Of a stretch of 34,847 bases of DNA, positions 8,119 to 29,051 are shown in pieces. The notes under the pieces were generated by a model, which saw only the letters and a program-made list of their open reading frames with translations, ran no database searches and was not told the DNA's origin. The DNA comes from an uncultured Nitrospina sp. (GTDB taxonomy: Bacteria; Nitrospinota; Nitrospinia; Nitrospinales; VA-1), in NCBI GenBank assembly GCA_964564655.1, contig CAZMBO010000001.1:1-34847 (forward strand). Direction: 5' to 3'. A program made the translations under genes and the position numbers. Each line of letters begins with the position of its first letter. Position 1 is the first letter of the stretch.

Positions 8119-8892
8119 ATGTGTTTCTCTAAAAATATCTTTCCTGTTCTTAGCATTATATTTTTATTTAGTAATTTGGGTTGTTCTGCAAACATTGAGG
8201 GTTGCCTGGAAGAAGGCAGTTGTGGCCCCGCAATTAAGGTTTTAGATTTTCAGAGAAGTTTCCCAGATGATCCATTTGATACTTTCTGGGATAGCAGACA
8301 GGCTCCTATTCCAACTTCGATTGAATTGGGGCCGCAAATGATTACCAATCCTAAGTGGCCGAATCCTTCTACTAAACAAGTTTTAATTCGAGCCGGGAAA
8401 AATAGAAATGAACTTGTTATCATGCTTGAATGGAATGACAAATCTCGAGACGGTAACTTTGATCATTCTTCCTTGTATGTAGATCGCGCTGCAGTGATGT
8501 TTCCTGTAGAAGCAGATAATGAACCACCTTCCATAACTATGGGAGAACCGGGTGTGCCTGTGAATATATGGCAATGGAAATCCATTGGGGGTGAAAAGGG
8601 GCAACCTGGCGTTAAAGAAAAAGAAGCCTTGGCCTATCAGACCGTGGAGGATCTTAATGCAGAGGGTTTCAGCACATTGACTTATCAAAGTCAGCAAAAT
8701 ATAAAAGGGACTGCATTATGGAAGAATGATACCTGGCGTTTGATCTTAAAGCGTGATCTTGTAGATGGAGACCGTAATGATGTTCAATTTCGACAATCAG
8801 TTTTAATGGCAGTGGCGGTTTGGAATGGTTCGAACAGAGAGTTGAATGGCCAGAAGGGAATAGCAGGTTGGATGTTGTTACAATTCAGTTGA
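8119..8892 (+). CDS. Secreted ethylbenzene-dehydrogenase-gamma (EB_dh) domain haem-b protein, type II DMSO-reductase gamma / NxrC-like
   Basis: N-terminal signal MCFSKNIFPVLSIIFLFSNLGC. Family-typical blocks: LVIMLEWNDKSRD, VDRAAVMFPV (candidate Met haem ligand), VNIWQWKS, WRLILKRDL and VAVWNGSNRELNGQKGIAGW (candidate Lys ligand). Confidence 0.65.
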   Translation: MCFSKNIFPVLSIIFLFSNLGCSANIEGCLEEGSCGPAIKVLDFQRSFPDDPFDTFWDSRQAPIPTSIELGPQMITNPKWPNPSTKQVLIRAGKNRNELVIMLEWNDKSRDGNFDHSSLYVDRAAVMFPVEADNEPPSITMGEPGVPVNIWQWKSIGGEKGQPGVKEKEALAYQTVEDLNAEGFSTLTYQSQQNIKGTALWKNDTWRLILKRDLVDGDRNDVQFRQSVLMAVAVWNGSNRELNGQKGIAGWMLLQFS

Positions 8893-9832
8893 TGGAATTA
8901 GCTTTTCCGTATTTACTTTCCAGATTCATTTGAAATTTCTTCCATGGAGCTTGAAGAGCAGGAACCAATTTTTCTTTTAATTCATTCGGAACGTAATTGA
9001 TTTTTTCAACGGGCCAGTCCTCTACATTTCTTATATCCAGATTTTCTTTTTTGTAAGGCCCTAATAGGGCTTCTTCAAACCCATAAACCAGGGCCGATGA
9101 ATATACAATATGGTACTGCTCTTCTATAATTTCCTCGGTATGCATGCCTTTAATAAATTTTTCGAATAGAGTGTTGATGATTGGCTCCGCATGCTCGACA
9201 AATTCGGAAGTTAAGGCTGGACGCAATGTAACATAAGTGATCAGCACGTCTTGAAGTAGAAACTTTAACTCTGAACTTTCCTTTTTTGGCGGCCGCGTAT
9301 TTATATTCAAAAGTTCTTTCAATGTTTTTATATTGCGGATCATATCGTATATGATGGATTCCTCCCAACTCGCCTTATTCCAGACAAAGAATGCGCGAAC
9401 ATAATTTGCACGTCCTTTGGTATCCCACATTTGCAATGCGGTGGTTGGGCGAATTTTGTTGGAGTAGGGGATCTTTTCACCCCATTTTGGGTCGACCAGA
9501 TTTAAGCCATAGCGCCCAAAAACCTCGGTAAAATTCTTTTGATAAAGCTGCATCAGCTTTTCAAAATTTTCTTTTTCATCTAGAGGGCCGTTTTGAGGGA
9601 GGCTGACTATAGAGTATAGGCGGACGACATTGGTTCTGGCCTCCCCATCATCTAAAGCTACCATATAAGACCCCCCCCACATTCCCGCGGAAATTGGGAT
9701 CTCCAGATTATGGATCTCCTTCATTTGAAGAGAAATGTGGGCCGCAAATTCTTTGAAAAGATTATGTAGGTAATAGAGATTGATGCGTTGGTTTTGAGAG
9801 TAGAGATGTCCGGGAAGAATTTTATAGTCCAT
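8885..9832 (-). CDS. Uncharacterised soluble protein, no family recognised, likely co-transcribed with ilvD
   Basis: 315-aa ORF that starts 5 nt after the ilvD stop. It has no TM helix or signal peptide. Its 3' end overlaps the convergent EB_dh gene by 8 nt. Confidence 0.6.
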   Translation of the reverse strand: MDYKILPGHLYSQNQRINLYYLHNLFKEFAAHISLQMKEIHNLEIPISAGMWGGSYMVALDDGEARTNVVRLYSIVSLPQNGPLDEKENFEKLMQLYQKNFTEVFGRYGLNLVDPKWGEKIPYSNKIRPTTALQMWDTKGRANYVRAFFVWNKASWEESIIYDMIRNIKTLKELLNINTRPPKKESSELKFLLQDVLITYVTLRPALTSEFVEHAEPIINTLFEKFIKGMHTEEIIEEQYHIVYSSALVYGFEEALLGPYKKENLDIRNVEDWPVEKINYVPNELKEKLVPALQAPWKKFQMNLESKYGKANSIN

Positions 9833-9837
9833 ATTTG

Positions 9838-11526
9838 CTAATCCGTGACGGCACCTCTACTGGCAGAGCTAACAACCTTGGCGTATTTTGCTAAAACACC
9901 CTTTTTGTATTTAATCTCTTTGGGCTTGAAAGATTTTCTTCGAGCTTCCAACTCTTCGTTAGTCAAATCAACATCGACTCTATTTTTTGCTATATCGATA
10001 TTGATAGTATCTCCATCATTTAATAATGCAAGATTTCCCCCTACCTGTGCTTCAGGAGCGACATGGCCGATAACTATTCCATAGGTTCCACCAGAAAACC
10101 GACCGTCCGTGATCAGTGCAACTTTATCGCCTAGTCCTTTGCCAACAATAGCAGCGGTAGGTGCCAGCATTTCTCGCATTCCGGGACCCCCCTTAGGCCC
10201 TTCAAAACGAATGATAATGACATCACCAGCTTTGATCTGGTCCTCAAGAATTGCATCGAGACATTCCTCTTCCGAATTGAAAACTTTCGCGGGTCCAGAA
10301 ATTTTACGAGTTTTTACTCCAGATACTTTTGCAACAGCCCCTTCGGAACAAAGATTGCCTTTTAAGACCACAAGATGTCCTTCTATTGACTTGGGTCGGT
10401 CAATGGGAAGTATGACATTTTGATTTGCAGAAGGTTGGTCGGGAACATCCTTTAAATTTTCCGCGACAGTTTTTCCGGTGACCGTGAGGCAATCTCCATG
10501 AATCATTCCTGCATTCAACATCATTTTCATCACCTGTGGGATTCCTCCAGCATGGTGCAAATCGACGGCAACGTATTGGCCTGAGGGTTTCAAATCACAA
10601 AATAGCGGAATTTTTTTACGTATGGATTCAAAATCATCGATGGTCAACTCTACATCGGCTGAATGAGCGATGGCAAGTAGATGCAGTACTGCATTGGTGG
10701 ATCCCCCAATAGCCATAATAACGGCGATGGCATTTTCAAATGCTTTTCGGGTCATGATGTCTCGTGGAAGAATATTTTGTTTTATCATGTTCATTAGTGC
10801 CTGAGCGCAGAGTCCGGTATTGAGTTCTTTTTCTTTATCCTCGTTGGCCATGGTTGAGCTATAGGGGAGGCTCATTCCCATTGCTTCGAATGCAGAGGAC
10901 ATGGTGTTGGCAGTATACATGCCACCACAAGAACCAAATCCAGGGCAAGCGTGTTTTTCAATTTCGGTGAGTTGATTTCTATCGATAGTTCCGGCCCCGA
11001 ACTGACCCACTGCCTCAAAGACACTGACAACGGTTAGGTCTTTCCCGTCTAGATGCCCAGGTTTAATCGTTCCACCATAAACAAAAATTCCGGGGATATT
11101 GAGTCTTGCCATACCAAGCATGGCTCCGGGCATGTTCTTGTCGCATCCGCCAATGCAAATGACTGCATCCATGCTTGCGCCGCGACAAACAGTCTCAATA
11201 GAATCAGCAATGACATCGCGACTAATGAGAGAACATTTCATGCCTTCTGTTCCCATCGAAATTCCATCACTAATGGTAATTGTGCCAAAAGTTTGCGGCA
11301 TTCCCCCTTCTTTTCGGATTTGATCTGCGGCAATGTCTGCGAGCTTTCCTAGACCGGCATTACATGGAGTAATATCGCTTTGACCGTTTGCTACGCCCAC
11401 TATGGGTTTTTGAAAATCTTCATCAGAAAACCCCACTGCGCGTAGCATTGCCCGATTGGGTGCACGTCTATCTCCCTGGGTAACGACTTGGCTTTTAGAG
11501 TTTAACGATTTAGAACCCTGCGACAT
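9838..11526 (-). CDS. ilvD: Dihydroxy-acid dehydratase
   Basis: 562 aa. [23 protein letters not shown], the [15 protein letters not shown] cluster region, and a C-terminal GHVAPEA motif. Confidence 0.95.
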
Positions 11527-11540
11527 AAATAACTCCTCGG

Positions 11541-11591
11541 TTTAAAAAACAAATATCCTCATTTGAGAATAATAGTTGTACTTATTATGAG
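11541..11591 (-). terminator. Possible weak intrinsic terminator after the radical-SAM gene
   Basis: The minus strand reads CTCAT-AATAA-gtacaacta-TTATT-ctca-ATGAG followed by gatatTTGTTTTTT. The stem is AT-rich, imperfect and two-tiered. Confidence 0.3.
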
Positions 11592-11607
11592 ATGATTTTA
11601 ATCCGAA

Positions 11608-13245
11608 TTATATTCCCTGCTCTTCGATTCGATTCAATATGGGGCGATGAAAATACCCATCACCATTATTGGAATGCGAGATGGCGTAGTATACAGGATG
11701 TTCCATAGATTTTAAATGGGCCTGAGACCCGGAAATTTCAATTTTATGTTGAAAGGAAATGATCGGAGTTTTTCTGTCTTGCTTCCATGTTTTCCCAGAA
11801 ACAATGGACTTTTCAGATAAGAAATCGGGGAGACGGTAGGCCCTTTGGGAATAAAGGTAGTCGAGTTTCAATAGATCTTTGTTTTCAATCGAGGGGTTAG
11901 TGAAGAATGTTTGCTGAAAAATTTTGTATTGTTTATCCAAGGCAATTGGATTCATAAACAAATTGTTTGATTCATGGTGTTGAAGCAATCGATCAAACAA
12001 AGTGACAGGATCCATTTTTTGTAAAAGGTGGGCTATGGAAAACCGAAATCTTTTAGAATTGTAAAATCGGTCAAATATATCAGCGAATTTTTTTAAGTAG
12101 TCAACTTCTTCAGCGCTAAGTTCTTTATTGGAAATTAATTCATAGGGTGGTGTAGATTGATATTGGTATTCATGTGACTGGATCTTATTTTTTATGGGAG
12201 CACCGGGGAGAAATTTAAGAAATCCTAATTGCAGTTCATGGGGTCTAAGTGAAAGCACGTCTCTGAATGAGTTTAATATTTTCTCCATGTTCTCCCCAGG
12301 GAGACCAAAAATAAGGTCGCAATGAAAATGGATTCTATCTTGGGCCAGTAATGTTTTAATGGTGTCGAATAATTTTTGATTGTTCTGTTTTCTCTCGATA
12401 CTTTCCTGTACCGATTCGTCGGTGGTCTGAATGCCGATTTCGAATTGAAACATTCCCGGTGGAACAGTTTCAAGAAATTTTAAAATATCGGGAGTGAGGA
12501 TATCTCCGACGACTTCAAAATGAAACTCTGACCCGATGAACTGTGAGAGCCATTCCATAAGAGATTTCATTCGATCAGGTTTCAGGTTGAACGTACGGTC
12601 GACAAATTTTAATTTTTTAACCCCTGCATCAATCAGGTTTTTTATTTGATTGTATATTTGCTCGTCATCGAAGTAGCGCACTGTTTTATCCAATGCGGAT
12701 AAGCAAAATGAGCATAGGTAAGGGCAACCGCGTGATGTTTCGAAATATACGATACGGTTTTTAAGTTGGGAATAATCTTCTTTGAGGTAGGCAGGTTTTA
12801 GATCAGGAAGATCCGACCCATAAGTTTTCCAGCGATCCAGTAACTCCTTTGATGGAACCTCTCCCTGGTCAATTATCTGGAGATATTCCAACCATTTCTT
12901 TTCTCCTTCGCCGGAAATTACAGGGCAATCTGCCGATGTTTCTGTTTCAAATGAAACCTCAGGTCCTCCGATGACAATTTTTAAATTCGGGTTTTGCTTT
13001 TGTAGTCGTTCAATAAGTTCGAAGCTTTGGCTCCGGTTCCAGATATAAATGCCAATTCCTAAAATATCCGGTTTTAGTTTTTGGATTTCTGAGGCGATCT
13101 TCCAAACGGGTTGATTGATGACAAATTCTTTGATCCAAACGTTTTTGTGTCCTGCTTCTCGGGCTGCATTCCGGAGATACCGAAGACCCAGAGATGAGTG
13201 AATAAACTTGGCGTTTAATGTGACCAGCCCTATGGAACGTTGCAA
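11608..13245 (-). CDS. B12-binding-domain radical SAM protein with a DUF4080-like C-terminal region
   Basis: 545 aa. It has an N-terminal cobalamin-binding-like Rossmann segment, the radical-SAM CxxxCxxC motif in SRGCPYLCSFC, and a long helical C-terminal extension. The start codon is TTG, preceded by GAGG. Confidence 0.82.
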   Translation of the reverse strand: MQRSIGLVTLNAKFIHSSLGLRYLRNAAREAGHKNVWIKEFVINQPVWKIASEIQKLKPDILGIGIYIWNRSQSFELIERLQKQNPNLKIVIGGPEVSFETETSADCPVISGEGEKKWLEYLQIIDQGEVPSKELLDRWKTYGSDLPDLKPAYLKEDYSQLKNRIVYFETSRGCPYLCSFCLSALDKTVRYFDDEQIYNQIKNLIDAGVKKLKFVDRTFNLKPDRMKSLMEWLSQFIGSEFHFEVVGDILTPDILKFLETVPPGMFQFEIGIQTTDESVQESIERKQNNQKLFDTIKTLLAQDRIHFHCDLIFGLPGENMEKILNSFRDVLSLRPHELQLGFLKFLPGAPIKNKIQSHEYQYQSTPPYELISNKELSAEEVDYLKKFADIFDRFYNSKRFRFSIAHLLQKMDPVTLFDRLLQHHESNNLFMNPIALDKQYKIFQQTFFTNPSIENKDLLKLDYLYSQRAYRLPDFLSEKSIVSGKTWKQDRKTPIISFQHKIEISGSQAHLKSMEHPVYYAISHSNNGDGYFHRPILNRIEEQGI

Positions 13246-23109: not shown

Positions 23110-23784
23110 ATGAGCAATAGCTCAACCAAAACTCTTTCAACTTTAGTGCTTTTTATAGCAGGACTCCTTTTATGTAATCCATTCATAGCAAATGCTTTTA
23201 AGATAAATTTACAACTGACTGGCGATGTTAACTTCCCGGGAATTTTAAAAGTGAATGCAGGGATGGATAAAAAATTCGACCGATTATGTTTTTTAGGGCA
23301 GGACGCACTAGGGATGATTGATTTGTCTTTTTTGGAGACTTTGGCTGAAAATGGGATTCCTGAAGGGGGTTACCAGGTTGCCCATGCTTTTCCAGATGAG
23401 AGATGGCCGGTTCGTTCATTCAGTCCCAATGGTGCATTAAGGTTTTCTCCTTTACCGGAATTGCAGTCAGCTGTTTTTAAAAACTTAGGAAAAAGCGGTT
23501 TAGCAATTCACGCAAAAGATTTTTTCCCGTTGGCCGAAAAATTGACTCAGAATCCCAAAATGATTTTGTTTTTTAACGACCAACTTTTCGAAAAATTAAT
23601 GGAGCGGTGGGGAACCCTTAGAGTCTCAAACTGGGACATGGGCCGCTTTCAGGATTTTTATAAAAGAAATACCCAATCCATTGACCAATGGAAAGTGCGT
23701 GTGGAACAGGTTCCTCTGGAGACTGTGAAATCAATTTGTGAACCCCTCAAAGTACAACGTAAACCAGGTGCTGAACCGGAATAA
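23110..23784 (+). CDS. Secreted protein of unknown family
   Basis: 224 aa with signal peptide LSTLVLFIAGLLLCNPFIANA. It starts 16 nt after the preceding gene, so it is probably in the same operon. Confidence 0.58.
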   Translation: MSNSSTKTLSTLVLFIAGLLLCNPFIANAFKINLQLTGDVNFPGILKVNAGMDKKFDRLCFLGQDALGMIDLSFLETLAENGIPEGGYQVAHAFPDERWPVRSFSPNGALRFSPLPELQSAVFKNLGKSGLAIHAKDFFPLAEKLTQNPKMILFFNDQLFEKLMERWGTLRVSNWDMGRFQDFYKRNTQSIDQWKVRVEQVPLETVKSICEPLKVQRKPGAEPE

Positions 23785-23959: not shown

Positions 23960-23987
23960 TTGACAAAAGGATGAAATATCATAGAAT
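23960..23987 (+). promoter_or_regulatory. Sigma70-type promoter of the ACL operon
   Basis: TTGACA (23960-23965), a 16-nt spacer, then TAGAAT (23982-23987). This implies a leader of about 130 nt before the ATG at 24127. Confidence 0.5.
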
Positions 23988-24038
23988 ACAGGCCTCGTTT
24001 TACGCTTAACCCTTATAAAAAATTATATTTATGCCGAT

Positions 24039-24057
24039 TAGACCCTAGTAGGGTCTA
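24039..24057. promoter_or_regulatory. 19-bp perfect palindrome TAGACCCTA-g-TAGGGTCTA in the ACL leader (candidate operator or 5'-UTR hairpin)
   Basis: Read directly. It has 9-bp arms and a 1-nt centre. It lies between the predicted -10 element and the GGAGG Shine-Dalgarno sequence of the first ACL gene. Confidence 0.45.
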
Positions 24058-24126
24058 CTTGGCTATTGAACTACTAGAACCTCATTTTCATTTCATTTTT
24101 TTAATCTTGGAGGGCAGGAAAATAAA

Positions 24127-25395
24127 ATGCAGATAACTGGCATGCTTTGGGGAAGAAAATTATTGGACCTGGTGGAATTCCCCCACTCTGAAGTTCGGGG
24201 TCCAGAACTGAGTGTCGATGAAATTAAAGATATGATCAAACGACACGGTCAAGTTTTCATTAAACCCTTATTTAAAGGTGGTGTTGGTAAAAAAGGAAAA
24301 TCTGGCCTGTTAGGCCGGGTTGATAATATAACCGATGCCTTGAAAGAAAAAGAACGCCTTTATTTTTGTGAACATGTTGACGGTTTCAACAAAGTGAAAT
24401 CAGACGGTGTGACATATGAAGGTGCGGTTCCTGCCGATTATGAAGTGTATTTTTCAATTACGGAAAGCACGGAACATCGTTCCCCTGTGATGACGGTCAC
24501 ACATCATGGGGGTGTAGATATTGAAGAGTTAGATTCTGACAAACTTGCAGTGGTTCCATTTGACCCATTGACAGGTTTAAAGGCATTTCATGTGTCGAAT
24601 GCATTGATGGATTTAGGAGCTCCCCCTGAAGTGATAAGCCCCTTAGTTCAGAATTTACCCAAACTTTGGGATTTGTATAACAACTATGGAATGTTGATGG
24701 TTGAGCTCAATCCCATTCGTATGCAACCGGGTAAAGGCGGACGCTTGGCTCCTATTGCCTGTGATTTTAAATGTGCCTTTGATCAGGATGATCCCGCCTG
24801 GAAAAGACTGCATTTGCCTGAACATCTTTTTGCATCTGATTACTCTGAATTTGAACAGGAAATCAATCAGCTTCGTACTTACCAAGGTCAGAGTGATGTT
24901 TTTGTTATGAATGATGAAGGGACTATCACCGCACCGACTTTTGGTGGTGGTGCAAATGCAATGGTTACGGAATTGCTGGGAGAGGATGCAACCATATCCT
25001 CGGATTTTGGTGGTAATCCTCCTTATGAAAAGATGAATGATATTTCTAAAATTAGTTTCAAATATTGGTTGCCGCAGTCGAATGTCCTATTTATTATCGG
25101 TGGTAAAGCCAACAATACGGATATTTATGAAACATTTCGTGCTATGGGGGATGGATTGCGTGAGTTTTTCCAAACGCATGGTCCGATCCCACTTTTTGTT
25201 GTTGTAGGTCGAGGAGGTCCTAACGTGATTCGTGGAATGAATTATCTTCGCGATGTTCTGGATTCTCTTGGATTGCCTTACCGTTTCTTTGGACATGATA
25301 GTGCAATGTCTGAGGTTATCAATTATGCCCTCAAAGTAAATGAGTGGATGAAAAGTGGTGGCAAGGACCAAATAAAAGCTAAATTAAAAATTTAA
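24127..25395 (+). CDS. aclB: ATP-citrate lyase small (beta, ATP-grasp) subunit-like protein, divergent
   Basis: 422 aa. Succinyl-CoA-synthetase-beta / ATP-grasp-like N-half (VFIKPLFKGGVGKKGKSGLLGRV, MVELNPI). The C-half has FGGGANAMVTE...DFGGNPP and a Rossmann segment LFIIGGKANNTD...VVVGRGGPN. There is a strong GGAGGG Shine-Dalgarno sequence, and the gene is paired with the large subunit. Confidence 0.78.
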   Translation: MQITGMLWGRKLLDLVEFPHSEVRGPELSVDEIKDMIKRHGQVFIKPLFKGGVGKKGKSGLLGRVDNITDALKEKERLYFCEHVDGFNKVKSDGVTYEGAVPADYEVYFSITESTEHRSPVMTVTHHGGVDIEELDSDKLAVVPFDPLTGLKAFHVSNALMDLGAPPEVISPLVQNLPKLWDLYNNYGMLMVELNPIRMQPGKGGRLAPIACDFKCAFDQDDPAWKRLHLPEHLFASDYSEFEQEINQLRTYQGQSDVFVMNDEGTITAPTFGGGANAMVTELLGEDATISSDFGGNPPYEKMNDISKISFKYWLPQSNVLFIIGGKANNTDIYETFRAMGDGLREFFQTHGPIPLFVVVGRGGPNVIRGMNYLRDVLDSLGLPYRFFGHDSAMSEVINYALKVNEWMKSGGKDQIKAKLKI

Positions 25396-25420
25396 CCTAT
25401 CGTAACCGTTGGAGGTTTGA

Positions 25421-28135
25421 ATGCATAAGCAAGGTGTAGGGGACTTCCCCTTTTATTGTGGCATTAACTCGTTGTCTGAATTAGCAACTAAAGATGATAG
25501 ATGCGTAGTTTTGAATATTCTTGGTAAAGAAAGCTCAGGTGTTACCCCGGTTAGCCATGACTACTCAGGAGGGAATATTGTTTTTGGCACCGGTCCGGGA
25601 AAATCCGGCAAGAGTCTGACAACGAAGTCCGGTAAAATCCCAGTTTATAACTCTATTAAAGAGGGTATGGAGGCGGGGCATAAATTCAACACCGTTGTAA
25701 TCTATCTTCCCCCTTCGGGTGTGAAAGATGGGCTCGCCGAAGCCGTACGTGACAACCCGGACCTCACTAAGGCCATTATCCTTACTGAAAAAGTTTCGGT
25801 TAAAGATTCTAGAATCATGAGGGCAATTTGTCAGGCGAATAACGTTGATCTTTTTGGTGGCAATTGTCTTGGGTTGGCTGATGCCTGGAATCACGTCCGA
25901 CTGGGTGGAGCTCTGGGCGGAAACGCTCCTGAAGAATCACTCATTAAGGGTTCGGTTGCTTTGTTTTCCAACTCCGGCAACTTCACCACGACGATAGCCG
26001 TTTATCTTTCCACTGCAGGGTGGGGGACAACGACATCTGTTTCCAGCGGCAAAGACGTCTATATTCAGTACAGTGCAAAAGAATTTCTTTATGCGTTAGA
26101 TAACGACGATCGTTCAAAAGCCGCCGTACTATACAGTGAACCAGGCGGATACTATGAGTATGGGCTGAAGTCTGACAAGCCTATCATCGCTTGTGTTGTT
26201 GGGCGTTGGAAAGCACGATTGACTAAAGCTTGCGGCCATGCTGGATCTTTGTCGGGGTCTGGAGACGATGCTCTTGCTAAAGAACAATGGTTTATGGATT
26301 ATTTTGGAGTCGACGGAGTTTATACGCCAGAAAAACCAATCTTCTCGAAAAAGGGTGCCTTGGTTACCAACATTGCATATATTCCGGAAGCTTTGACCAA
26401 AGTCATGGAACTTAACAATTCTAAGCCGGATTTCGAGCCACGCGGCAGCCTTGATTTAAAGCCGTGGTTTGGCAATAACCAGGGTTTATCTCTACCTTCT
26501 GATCTGGATCTTTCTATTGTTGAAGCAGCCAATCCCTACAATGAACAGATCGAAGCTTTGGATAAAATGATAGGTGCCCAGCATCGACGCGAAACCTTGA
26601 AAGATGCGAGTGGTGCTTCGATGATGGATCCAAAAACTCAGGTGTCGAAAATTCACAACACTTCAATTCTTGATGCCTCTATGGCAACCTTTGAAGCTAA
26701 TCTAGTGTTCGCGCTTACACGGCAATACACTTGCGAATATGGTGAGAAGATCGCAAACATCGTCTTGAATATGTATGTGAATCAGTACAATCAGCCTACG
26801 ATGGCAGCGGCTCAAGCGGCACGAGATAACGGCAATTCTCCGAATACGGTGGTCTCCTCTGCGGTAGCGATTGTTGGGAAGAAAATGGTGCAAAAGGCAA
26901 TGGATGCTTCAAGTGCACTATTAGAGTTGTTTCAGTACACTAAACTCGACGGCCCAAAAGAGACATTCGATTATGCTGCCCAATTAAAAGAAGCAGATAA
27001 ATTTAAGGGTGCACTTTTAGCCGATGGCGAAGACCCTTGCGCTAGCAAATTAGCGGAATATCTAAATAAAGCCGGCGACTCCGTGTTTATTAAGTTTGTG
27101 CAAGACTTTGCAGCTGCTAACGGTGGAAAACTTTCTACCGATGCATTATTCGGTGCCGTTTGGGTTACTTTGGGTTGGGAAGCGTTGAGAGGCAAAAAGA
27201 TTTCCAAAGGCACGCTGATACGTCTTCCTTGGTATTCTCGCATCTATAGCACCATCGTTGGGGTTTCTGCTCCTTCCTCACGACACACGGAAGATAGTGT
27301 TGCCGGAGTTAAGCTAGAAGAGTTAATTCCTAACTATAGCTTTACAAAGACAGCGTTTGTTACTTTGTTGGGTCGTCAGCCTTCTGAGTCGGAGCTTTAT
27401 GAGTTTCAGGTTCTACTCGGCCTTATCATCACTAACGGACCGGGCACTATCTCTGCTCAAGGCGCTAAAGGTGCTGTCAGTGCAGATGGCCCCGAACAGC
27501 CTCAGCGAGTACAACTGAATAAAGGTTTTATCGGTTTTCTCACGCATACCGGGTTTGCCCATGGTGGAAATGGATTTGAAGCGGCAGCATTTCTTATGGA
27601 AAACTTCAAAGGTAAAGGGTTGAAAGACCCTTCTGATACCAATCATGGTCTGGATCTCGATGCTATGGCTCTAAAGGTTGCGAAGGAATATGCTGACTAT
27701 AAAAAGAAACAAAAAGCAATCGGTAACCTAGATTATGCCAAGTTGCCTTGTGTGAATCATCCCATATTCAAGGGCAAAGATGTGAATTACGACCCACGCG
27801 AAGTTTTCGTTAATGGCCTATTCAAGGAAAAAGGTATTAGTAACGTTTTCTTGGATTTTTATCATAGTCTCGTTCAGGGGTTGTTCGATGCGAAAGTTAG
27901 TAAGAATGTTTATTGTGTAAACATCGATGCAGTTATCGCCGTTATCCTTCTAAAAATTGTCTGGACAGATTTCAACGATGGTAAGATGAAAGAGGAAGAC
28001 ATCGAGTCTGCTAGTTTCGCAACCTTTCTGTTTGGTAGAATGATTGGTTGTGCGGCTGAAATCGATGATCATACCTCACGCGGCAAAAATATGGATACCC
28101 GAACCCCGGCGAGCAAATGTTCCTATGTAGGCTAA
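25421..28135 (+). CDS. aclA: ATP-citrate lyase large (alpha) subunit-like protein with an internal extra segment of about 300 residues
   Basis: 904 aa. CoA-binding/ligase N-part with the phosphohistidine loop KACGHAGSLSG (His273 at nt 26237-26239). The C-terminal citryl-CoA-lyase / citrate-synthase-homology module reads LLGLIITNGPGTISAQGAKGAVSADG...FAHGGNGFEAAAF...FGRMIGCAAEIDDH...SYVG, which resembles the ACLY C-terminus. Confidence 0.85.
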   Translation: MHKQGVGDFPFYCGINSLSELATKDDRCVVLNILGKESSGVTPVSHDYSGGNIVFGTGPGKSGKSLTTKSGKIPVYNSIKEGMEAGHKFNTVVIYLPPSGVKDGLAEAVRDNPDLTKAIILTEKVSVKDSRIMRAICQANNVDLFGGNCLGLADAWNHVRLGGALGGNAPEESLIKGSVALFSNSGNFTTTIAVYLSTAGWGTTTSVSSGKDVYIQYSAKEFLYALDNDDRSKAAVLYSEPGGYYEYGLKSDKPIIACVVGRWKARLTKACGHAGSLSGSGDDALAKEQWFMDYFGVDGVYTPEKPIFSKKGALVTNIAYIPEALTKVMELNNSKPDFEPRGSLDLKPWFGNNQGLSLPSDLDLSIVEAANPYNEQIEALDKMIGAQHRRETLKDASGASMMDPKTQVSKIHNTSILDASMATFEANLVFALTRQYTCEYGEKIANIVLNMYVNQYNQPTMAAAQAARDNGNSPNTVVSSAVAIVGKKMVQKAMDASSALLELFQYTKLDGPKETFDYAAQLKEADKFKGALLADGEDPCASKLAEYLNKAGDSVFIKFVQDFAAANGGKLSTDALFGAVWVTLGWEALRGKKISKGTLIRLPWYSRIYSTIVGVSAPSSRHTEDSVAGVKLEELIPNYSFTKTAFVTLLGRQPSESELYEFQVLLGLIITNGPGTISAQGAKGAVSADGPEQPQRVQLNKGFIGFLTHTGFAHGGNGFEAAAFLMENFKGKGLKDPSDTNHGLDLDAMALKVAKEYADYKKKQKAIGNLDYAKLPCVNHPIFKGKDVNYDPREVFVNGLFKEKGISNVFLDFYHSLVQGLFDAKVSKNVYCVNIDAVIAVILLKIVWTDFNDGKMKEEDIESASFATFLFGRMIGCAAEIDDHTSRGKNMDTRTPASKCSYVG

Positions 28136-28197
28136 CCGGACTACGCTTGATGGGAACCGGACAGATCAATAAATCAGGTTTAATATGGAAGTTTGAA

Positions 28198-28237
28198 AGG
28201 GCCTTTACTCTTTAGAGTAAGGGCCTTTTGTATTTTT
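28198..28237 (+). terminator. Rho-independent terminator of the ACL operon
   Basis: AGGGCCTTTACTC-tta-GAGTAAGGGCCTT gives a stem of about 13 bp (two G-U pairs) with a 4-nt loop, followed by TTTTGTATTTTT. Confidence 0.72.
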
Positions 28238-28295: not shown

Positions 28296-29051
28296 GTGCA
28301 ATGTCAGGAAGGTTTGTTGAAAGCCCCTTATCATTATTCACTGATTCAAAAATATATTTTTGACGATTTACCCTTGATCGCCATGAATGTGGCTCGTATT
28401 GGTGCTCAGACGCCAGGAATAGCTTATGAAATCGCTGATGGCGAAAAGCATTTCGTGACGATTGGGTTTGGTCCCATGAACTGGTTACTCATTACGCCGG
28501 ATGTCCCAGCATCAGGTGGATTTAGTGTGTTCGACGAAATAGCTGTAGGGGATGAAGAAATGCCCGAGTCTGAAGGAGATATGTTGCTATATTTTTCATC
28601 CGGACATCCGAAGCTAAACCGTGAGTTAGCAAAAAGGGTTCAAGAACTATTTGGCGATAAAGCCGAGTTGATTGAGGATGTTGAAGTCGAGGGTGGTGAG
28701 CATTCCAACCTTGCAGAAGTAAAGAAGCAGGTCTTGATCGAAGACCGCAATTTCCTCGATCAGGCACAAAGTAGCTTTTTAAGCACGCATCGATTTTCTT
28801 CCATGGATGAAACGACTACCGATCTGCCGCAGCACCGTTATAATTATAAAACGGATAATGAGTCCGGCGACTATGTTTTGACCTTTGATAAAAACCCGTC
28901 AACACTGGAAGAACATAGCGAATCCTTAACTCAACCTGCAAAATCCCGTGGCCTGTTTTTTATCCCGTCTCTGGAATTATTGACTAGTTTGAGAATGGGA
29001 GGCATTCGCATGGGTTCTCTCGCTATCAACGCCCGTTGGAAAGGATACTGA
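28296..29051 (+). CDS. Uncharacterised acidic soluble protein
   Basis: 251 aa. GTG start preceded by AGAGG. No signal peptide, TM helix or recognised motif. Confidence 0.52.
   Translation: MQCQEGLLKAPYHYSLIQKYIFDDLPLIAMNVARIGAQTPGIAYEIADGEKHFVTIGFGPMNWLLITPDVPASGGFSVFDEIAVGDEEMPESEGDMLLYFSSGHPKLNRELAKRVQELFGDKAELIEDVEVEGGEHSNLAEVKKQVLIEDRNFLDQAQSSFLSTHRFSSMDETTTDLPQHRYNYKTDNESGDYVLTFDKNPSTLEEHSESLTQPAKSRGLFFIPSLELLTSLRMGGIRMGSLAINARWKGY

Follow-up and report, generated by a model that had tools for sequence, protein, structure and literature searches.

A predicted two-subunit ATP-citrate lyase of Nitrospinota whose large subunit appears to carry a second, degenerate lyase module

A 34,847-nt stretch of DNA from an uncultured Nitrospina sp. 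(GenBank assembly GCA_964564655.1, contig CAZMBO010000001.1, positions 1 to 34,847 of the forward strand; hereafter the window) contains two adjacent plus-strand genes that a preliminary description of the sequence had read as a divergent, two-subunit ATP-citrate lyase (ACL). The two open reading frames (ORFs), 24127..25395 and 25421..28135, encode a small subunit of 422 aa and a large subunit of 904 aa. Both genes, the 25-nt gap between them and the GGAGG sites that precede them were located as first described, and every peptide that had been quoted from the large subunit is present at the position given for it. The middle region of the large subunit, for which a second and degenerate citrate-synthase-homology (CSH) module had been suggested, is the main subject of this analysis. 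We refer to this region, residues 396-620, as CSH' and to the C-terminal module, residues 621-904, as CSH.

Domain content of the two subunits

Pfam profiles detected two domains in the small subunit, ATP-grasp_2 at residues 54-197 (E = 4.7e-12; 46.4 bits against a cut-off of 29.5) and the ACL-type Citrate_bind domain at residues 240-403 (E = 7.7e-16; 58.6 bits against a cut-off of 26.8). The best solved relative of this subunit is CcsA of the Hydrogenobacter citryl-CoA synthetase (CCS; 6hxq_B, 2e-27). The Methanothrix ACL subunit 6hxi_A (2.8e-22) and human ACLY (~4e-13) come next, and C. limicola AclB (1.3e-11) and the beta subunits of succinyl-CoA synthetase (SCS; 3e-11 or weaker) are lower matches. 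The NCBIfam SucC model was not passed (54.7 bits, cut-off 370).

The N-terminal part of the large subunit matches CoA_binding and Succ_CoA_lig at residues 29-281, above the Pfam cut-offs. It contains the GHAG phosphohistidine loop in the form ACGHAGS (residues 270-276), which aligns with CcsB and SCS-alpha; an SCS-alpha-like CoA-ligase part with this loop had been placed at about residues 25-330, and that assignment holds. The histidine of the loop, H273 (nt 26237-26239), is conserved in 52/52 members of a family-wide set of 52 sequences with less than 75% mutual identity, on which all conservation counts of this kind are based. The best solved relative of the synthetase part is CcsB (6hxq_A, 1.1e-26), followed by SCS-alpha (2e-23) and AclA of C. 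limicola (2.4e-10), and a structural search with the whole model returned AclA (6hxj_B) as its top match. The NCBIfam SucD model was not passed (116 bits, cut-off 336). Approximately 570 residues of the large subunit lie beyond the two-domain SCS alpha subunit.

The synthetase part is followed by a linker, residues 332-395, of which residues 341-377 have a predicted local distance difference test (pLDDT) score below 50 and are disordered in the monomer AlphaFold model. Across a range from Nitrospinota to Geobacter, eleven linker residues nevertheless reach a conservation of 95% or more (D337, F338, G342, L344, L346, K347, W349, P372, Y373, G385 and R390). Because these invariant residues (DF.P.G.L.LK.W, PY and R390) persist despite the predicted disorder, the linker is probably a docking segment for another subunit.

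CSH matches the NCBIfam citryl-CoA lyase model NF004869 over residues 621-902 (E = 7e-12) and the solved citryl-CoA lyase (CCL) 6hxp in the PDB (2.7e-4), and its AHGG, YDPR and N.D motifs line up with those of CCL and citrate synthases. The active site of citrate synthase consists of H274, H320, R329, D375 and R401 together with R421' from the partner subunit (pig numbering). CSH carries H714 (AHGG), H780 (CVNHP), R793 (DPRE), D836 (VNIDA), R873 (GRM) and R894 (TRTP...Y.G), each conserved in 52/52 family sequences. The arginine equivalent to R894 reaches the active site of the partner in citrate-synthase-type dimers. Other peptides of the module are ITNGPG...SADG (670-690), FAHGGNGFEAAAF (712-724), GRMIGCAAEIDDH (872-884) and the terminal SYVG (901-904). 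While the module and its motifs agree with the preliminary description, which had placed them at about residues 640-904, the module starts at ~621.

The middle region of the large subunit

To compare the middle and C-terminal regions, profiles of the large subunit were aligned against themselves with HHalign, as the preliminary description had proposed. With a first profile set of 120 close homologues, residues 495-617 matched residues 720-879 (92.8% probability, E = 3.9e-7, score 55), and under looser alignment settings the match was colinear over 207-209 columns. In a broader set, to which relatives from Variovorax and Geobacter had been added, residues 405-620 aligned with residues 621-882 over 214 columns (97.2%, E = 3.2e-11, score 79.1). 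The family-wide set of 52 sequences gave 207 colinear columns (98.1%, E = 8e-14, score 95.8). Control scores were 12-16 for reversed profiles and 14-18 for the N-terminal part against either module, and 60 block-shuffled profiles reached maxima of 31.7 and 38.2. The reversed and block-shuffled controls rule out an artefact of helical composition.

Structure prediction points in the same direction. The full-length AlphaFold model is most confident over residues 410-660 (pLDDT 88-98), which form helices throughout. A fold search with the whole protein was swamped by the SCS-alpha/AclA part and was uninformative for the middle region, so that a separate domain model was needed. When residues 305-620 were modelled on their own, the helical part reached pLDDT values of 84-98, with 130 residues at 90 or above. 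When this model was compared with the PDB using Foldseek, the top match was the Hydrogenobacter thermophilus CCL 6hxp (E = 3.6e-4, TM score 0.52, 224 columns). The C-terminal portion of ACLY (6nzy) and the C. limicola 'CCL core' (6hxo/6qcl) were next, with E = 2e-3 to 7e-2; the CCL core structures superpose with TM scores of 0.54-0.59 and a root-mean-square deviation of 4.1-4.6 Å. Citrate synthases and methylcitrate synthases came after the CCL and ACL cores. The matches span 208-248 (typically 224-229) of ~256-265 target residues, and this near-full coverage argues for a complete second module rather than an N-terminal extension. On two independent lines, profile-profile self-alignment and fold search, the middle region is predicted to be a second citryl-CoA-lyase-fold module. 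The tandem arrangement of one catalytic and one degenerate CSH copy put forward in the preliminary description is thereby borne out.

None of the catalytic features of CSH is retained in CSH'. The position of the HGG motif, whose absence had been noted before, is of the Lys/Met type, the His-bearing loop is deleted, DPR becomes DPC or has some other residue in place of the arginine, and CSH' stops before the R894 region. Seven of its positions are at least 95% conserved (S397, L417, N450, P474, N475, G486 and W586). Family-wide, N450, P474, N475 and G486 are found in 52/52 sequences, W586 in 51/52, and R468 as either arginine or lysine in 49/52. Because the catalytic residues are absent and conservation is strongly asymmetric among the parts of the protein (Table 1), CSH' is, judged from sequence, an old, fast-evolving and catalytically dead copy that has never been lost.

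Two peptides of this region had been singled out as signs of a citrate-synthase fold, IVLNMYVNQ...AIVG (447-486) and GWEALRGK...SRIY (585-609), and both are present. The second of these does not correspond to the C-terminal citrate-synthase signature for which it had been taken; it aligns instead with the helix pair before GRMIG of CSH. The true equivalent of that signature (R894...Y902.G904) occurs only in the C-terminal copy. A stand-alone CCL-like protein of Cupriavidus, used as a single sequence, gave no usable alignment signal even against the catalytic copy, so the two copies may go back either to intragenic duplication or to separate lyase genes that became joined.

Operon layout and distribution of relatives

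The features of the locus are collected in Table 1. The promoter-like TTGACA and TA(G/A)AAT hexamers are kept upstream of orthologous Nitrospinales operons down to ~75% protein identity, and this conserved element upstream of the small-subunit gene implies a leader of ~140 nt. It persists at eight loci whose flanks have otherwise diverged (L001, L002, L006, L008, L014, L016, L017 and L025). As the promoter-like site and the terminator-like hairpin bracket the gene pair, and the promoter hexamers are conserved, we read the pair as a two-gene transcription unit. The small-subunit gene lies directly upstream of the large-subunit gene at every locus checked. Base composition over both genes is unremarkable.

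Table 1. Features of the two-gene unit and its flanks, with family conservation for the parts of the large subunit
Feature	Coordinates	Strand	Basis or detail	Positions ≥95% conserved	Mean pairwise identity
Promoter-like TTGACA-16 nt-TAGAAT	23960..23987	+	Consensus scan, 11/12 matches		
Leader, ~140 nt	23988..24126	+	Palindrome 24040-24056; Shine-Dalgarno GGAGG 24109-24113		
Small subunit gene, 422 aa	24127..25395	+	AclB/CcsA-like; ORF and Pfam		
Intergenic gap, 25 nt	25396..25420	+	GGAGG at 25411-25415		
Large subunit residues 1-331, synthetase part	25421..26413	+	Pfam, CcsB match	33%	0.64
Large subunit residues 332-395, linker	26414..26605	+	pLDDT, conservation	17%	0.50
Large subunit residues 396-620, CSH'	26606..27280	+	HHalign, Foldseek	3% (7/225)	0.31
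Large subunit residues 621-904 and stop codon, CSH	27281..28135	+	NCBIfam, PDB 6hxp	21%	0.53
Intrinsic-terminator-like hairpin, 15-bp stem then T run	28196..28229	+	Consensus scan		

The leader contains a perfect 8+1+8 palindrome, AGACCCTAGTAGGGTCT, which is unique within the window (0 expected by chance). It is degraded in the closest relatives, L001 and L002, and is not conserved. Unrelated GC-rich hairpins are found near the same leader spot in some more distant loci, and the leader showed no conserved RNA structure (alifold -2.66). With the palindrome absent from close relatives and no leader RNA structure conserved, it was set aside as part of the mechanism.

The neighbors of the operon are housekeeping genes (dnaE, M16 peptidase, ilvD, radical SAM, AAA ATPase, dienelactone hydrolase and polyprenyl synthetase). 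The ORFs that flank it, 23110-23784 (224 aa, with a hydrophobic N-terminus) and 28296-29051 (251 aa), have no Pfam match, and neither tRNA nor Rfam matches were found in the window.

A scan with one genome per species found a relative in at least 583 genomes. The ~900-aa architecture is present in at least 583 species genomes, non-autotrophs included, and residues 1-904 of the large subunit are covered by all of the best 80 loci, which were those kept. Among 1.84 billion representative proteins, the middle region occurs in 235 clusters (50% identity), most of them fragments, with full-length members of 907-909 aa. Proteins from marine Nitrospinales/Nitrospina metagenome-assembled genomes (MAGs) share 96-97% identity with the large subunit, the best locus being that of a Station ALOHA Nitrospinales MAG, and homologues from cultured-lineage Nitrospina share 70-72%. 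Besides Nitrospinota, carriers include a large 'Deltaproteobacteria'/Thermodesulfobacteriota MAG clade and the aerobic Burkholderiales Variovorax, Cupriavidus necator, Polaromonas, Acidovorax and Ralstonia. A second clade comprises Geobacter metallireducens, Desulfobacter, Desulfosarcina, Spirochaetia, Leptospirales, KSB1 and Ignavibacteriota. Large subunits from the Burkholderiales and from this Geobacter/Desulfobacter clade are 900-914 aa long.

The Variovorax (L081/L082) and C. necator (L083) loci, with genes at 8689-12724, encode a two-gene, 907-aa tandem-lyase enzyme in aerobes that do not use the reductive tricarboxylic acid (rTCA) cycle. The Variovorax copy adjoins a major facilitator superfamily (MFS) transporter and a class II aldolase; the C. 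necator copy adjoins TctC receptors, an IclR regulator, an AMP-binding ligase and a 260-aa CCL-like gene without HGG. These neighboring genes suggest that the Burkholderiales copies serve carboxylate catabolism rather than autotrophy.

A genuine split form would have placed the duplication ahead of the fusion, but the apparent one, a 550-aa 'stand-alone tandem lyase' (P0265), proved to be an assembly artefact: its locus (L084, 2300-6700, JGI metagenome contig Ga0611991_2371) contains the whole operon with many frameshifts. Short family members in protein databases should therefore not be taken as split genes. The names given to members in databases vary, and include 'CoA-binding protein', 'succinyl-CoA synthetase alpha subunit', 'SucD2' and 'citrate/2-methylcitrate synthase'.

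Relation to known enzymes, proposed mechanism and significance

The nearest solved relatives of every catalytic part are CcsA/CcsB and Ccl of H. thermophilus (6hxq and 6hxp). By analogy with CCS and CCL, the chemistry would consist of citryl-CoA formation through a phosphohistidine followed by lyase cleavage. Unlike the separate CcsB and Ccl, the two parts are here fused in one ORF (25421-28135), and the lyase module occurs twice, one copy being dead. CcsB (353 aa) and CCL (268 aa) add up to 621 aa, and type I AclA chains have 616-617 aa with a single CSH module. The 904 aa of the window protein, with two CCL-fold modules, therefore correspond to approximately one extra module and a linker.

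The pair also resembles AclAB (C. limicola 6hxj; Methanothrix 6hxi) and human ACLY in combining an ATP-grasp/citrate-binding part with a CoA-ligase-lyase fusion, and CSH' and CSH alike match ACL 'CCL core' structures. Type I AclA and AclB are not the nearest kin, however, since the matches to CcsB (1.1e-26) and CcsA (2e-27) outrank those to AclA (2.4e-10) and AclB (1.3e-11), and the NCBIfam ACL models do not match the window proteins. Both lyase modules share the helical fold of citrate synthase (PF00285), and CSH keeps the active-site equivalents. Unlike citrate synthase, which has ~370-430 aa, they measure 225 and 284 aa and sit within an ATP-dependent ligase fusion. The pair does not pass the SucCD equivalog cut-offs, and its beta-like subunit contains a citrate-binding domain of the ACL type. 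Clustering with SCS or citrate synthase had been named beforehand as evidence against an ACL; by PDB sequence matches, the pair is nearer CCS than SCS or type I ACL.

A 'type II ACL' has been postulated for Magnetococcus (Mmc1_3638/3639) and tubeworm symbionts, and the name has also been used for Thioflavicoccus. A review by Hugler and Sievert from 2011 is said to be the one that defined this postulated enzyme. Citrate cleavage has been reported for Magnetococcus MC-1 and the Riftia symbiont, both carriers of the postulated type II ACL. In N. gracilis, two coding sequences with very low similarity to ACL subunits are the sole candidates for citrate cleavage (Lucker et al. 2013), and related planctomycete genes have been described as ccsB-ccl fusions that lie between CCS/CCL and type II ACL (Thiel et al. 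2017). Primers published for type II ACL correspond to the peptides VAKEEWF and NGFEAIA; the large subunit has AKEQWF at residues 286-291 and NGFEAAA at residues 717-723, flanking CSH'. The primer motifs and the 70-72% identity to Nitrospina homologues are consistent with the suggestion in the preliminary description that this protein might be a type II ACL.

The accessible literature treats type II ACL only as a divergent ACL or as a ccsB-ccl fusion, without a second lyase-like module. No such module, purified enzyme or structure is described in the accessible literature, although a prior description is not fully excluded, and a 2026 copy of the PDB contains no close relative. Within the accessible literature, the label 'uncharacterised' given to this variant therefore stands. 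The kind of enzyme is already known, as the postulated divergent ACL of Nitrospinota; the tandem architecture of a dead and an active lyase module appears to be undescribed in that literature.

Taken together, the gene pair is likely a two-subunit, CCS/CCL-derived 'type II' ACL with a large subunit of the order CcsB-like part, linker, CSH' and CSH, in which CSH' is a scaffold pseudoenzyme. The features of the ACL functional class are present: ATP-grasp and Citrate_bind domains, a GHAG ligase part, and a C-terminally fused lyase with intact catalytic residues. By homology with SCS, CCS and ACLY, the small subunit would bind ATP and citrate, and H273 of the large subunit would be phosphorylated and pass its phosphate to citrate. 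CoA would then attack the citryl-phosphate, giving citryl-CoA with displacement of phosphate. CSH would split citryl-CoA into acetyl-CoA and oxaloacetate using H714, H780 and D836 with R793, R873 and an R894 acting in trans. That citrate is the molecule cleaved is suggested by the physiology of type II carriers.

CSH' would have arisen by an old internal duplication of the lyase module and would serve as a pseudoenzyme scaffold. In our preferred reading, CSH would still form a dimer with its counterpart in another large subunit, because R894 acts in trans in citrate-synthase-type dimers and is invariant here. CSH' lacks an arginine of the R894 type, and its most plausible location is therefore the remaining interface of the ancestral CCL core, where it would fill the place of the second dimer in a four-module core. 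The lyase core would then be built from two chains, not four. Our tentative model, which is possible but which we do not regard as probable, is a pseudo-D2 core of two active and two dead modules from two large subunits, giving an (alpha-beta)2 assembly in place of the canonical alpha4-beta4. If true, the tandem CSH'-CSH would have exchanged a homo-oligomeric interface for an intramolecular pseudo-subunit. It would also represent an independent second remodelling of the ancestral tetrameric CCL core, parallel to the proposed origin of citrate synthase, and would affect an enzyme on which carbon fixation by the main marine nitrite oxidisers depends.

Several observations weigh against the assignment as a type II ACL with a second lyase module. 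Sequence searches of Pfam, NCBIfam and the PDB returned nothing meaningful for residues ~305-620, even when a 21-sequence profile was used; the middle-only model was likewise built on a 21-sequence alignment, and its fold-search statistics are modest (best E = 3.6e-4, TM scores of 0.43-0.59, 10-17% identity). The C-terminal module itself falls under the NCBIfam citryl-CoA-lyase cut-offs. Among the domain profiles named in the preliminary description, ATP-grasp_2, Citrate_bind, CoA_binding and Succ_CoA_lig match the pair, but Citrate_synt (PF00285) does not match the window protein at E <= 1; some homologues carry a precomputed PF00285 match. The substrate and direction of the enzyme are suggested by homology, with no purified or solved member in the accessible literature, and there are no other rTCA genes within the window. 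Lastly, aerobic heterotrophs and autotrophs using the Calvin-Benson-Bassham cycle (Cupriavidus necator) share the architecture. The family therefore extends beyond the rTCA cycle, and some hosts may use the enzyme in the reverse direction or for a related acid.

Three other explanations were considered. It is highly improbable that the middle region is an unrelated helical insertion, or a set of N-terminal helices completing a citrate-synthase fold, with its self-similarity arising from helical composition. The failure of every sequence-profile library to recognize residues 305-620 would fit such an origin, as would the mere 14-20% identity between the copies. The observed scores of 55-96, however, stand well apart from the 12-16 of reversed and the <=38 of shuffled profiles, the alignment is colinear over almost the entire module, and the isolated middle model matches complete CCL modules. 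The main alternative to a scaffold role for CSH' is a regulatory one, which we consider rather unlikely: as a ligand-sensing pseudoenzyme, CSH' would bind a metabolite or a CoA moiety and gate the swing of citryl-CoA between the synthetase and lyase sites. Such a role could account for the family-wide conservation of N450, P474, N475, G486, W586 and R468 despite a mean identity of 31%, for the clustering of the conserved residues in the segment aligned to the substrate-binding loop region of CSH, and for the near invariance within Nitrospinota of D574, which aligns with the catalytic D836. On the other hand, no ligand-binding motif was identified in CSH', and the citrate/oxaloacetate binders H714, H780, R793, R873 and R894 have no counterpart there. 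The conserved residues fit constraints from the fold or an interface equally well.

A further explanation is that the pair is not an ACL. It would instead be an ATP-dependent CoA ligase/lyase acting on a related acid such as 2-methylcitrate, citramalate or malate, or an enzyme that forms citrate and yields ATP, and Nitrospinota would cleave citrate in another way. Many organisms without the rTCA cycle do carry the family (Variovorax, Cupriavidus, Polaromonas, Geobacter, Desulfosarcina and Spirochaetia), its genes there adjoin the transporters (MFS, TctC), regulator, AMP-binding ligase and CCL-like gene described above, some databases label members 'citrate/2-methylcitrate synthase', and biochemical proof of citrate cleavage was not found in the accessible literature. 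We nonetheless think this explanation improbable. The small subunit has an ACL-type citrate-binding domain above the Pfam cut-off, and CSH keeps the full set of citrate-synthase-type residues for binding oxaloacetate and citrate. Nitrospina has no other candidate for citrate cleavage (Lucker et al. 2013), and the activity is reported in the type II carriers Magnetococcus MC-1 and the Riftia symbiont.

As a probable type II ACL, the enzyme has a bearing beyond this locus. Nitrospinota predominate among the nitrite oxidisers of the sea, and their carbon fixation runs through the rTCA cycle, so the enzyme would catalyse the committed cleavage step of a pathway of global relevance. It fails the curated cut-offs of every NCBIfam lyase and ligase model tested, and family members are variously named, so that marker-gene surveys can miss or mislabel the enzyme; automated surveys of rTCA markers likely treat it inconsistently. 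The tandem architecture is universal within a widespread family and carries a testable prediction of quaternary structure. A dead lyase module kept in every member across many phyla points to a quaternary architecture unlike that of the solved ACL and ACLY enzymes, and offers a test case for the rebuilding of the ancestral tetrameric CCL core through duplication and pseudoenzyme formation. The presence of the family in aerobic heterotrophs such as Variovorax and Cupriavidus suggests that ATP-dependent citrate cleavage, or the opposite reaction, also serves purposes other than autotrophic growth.

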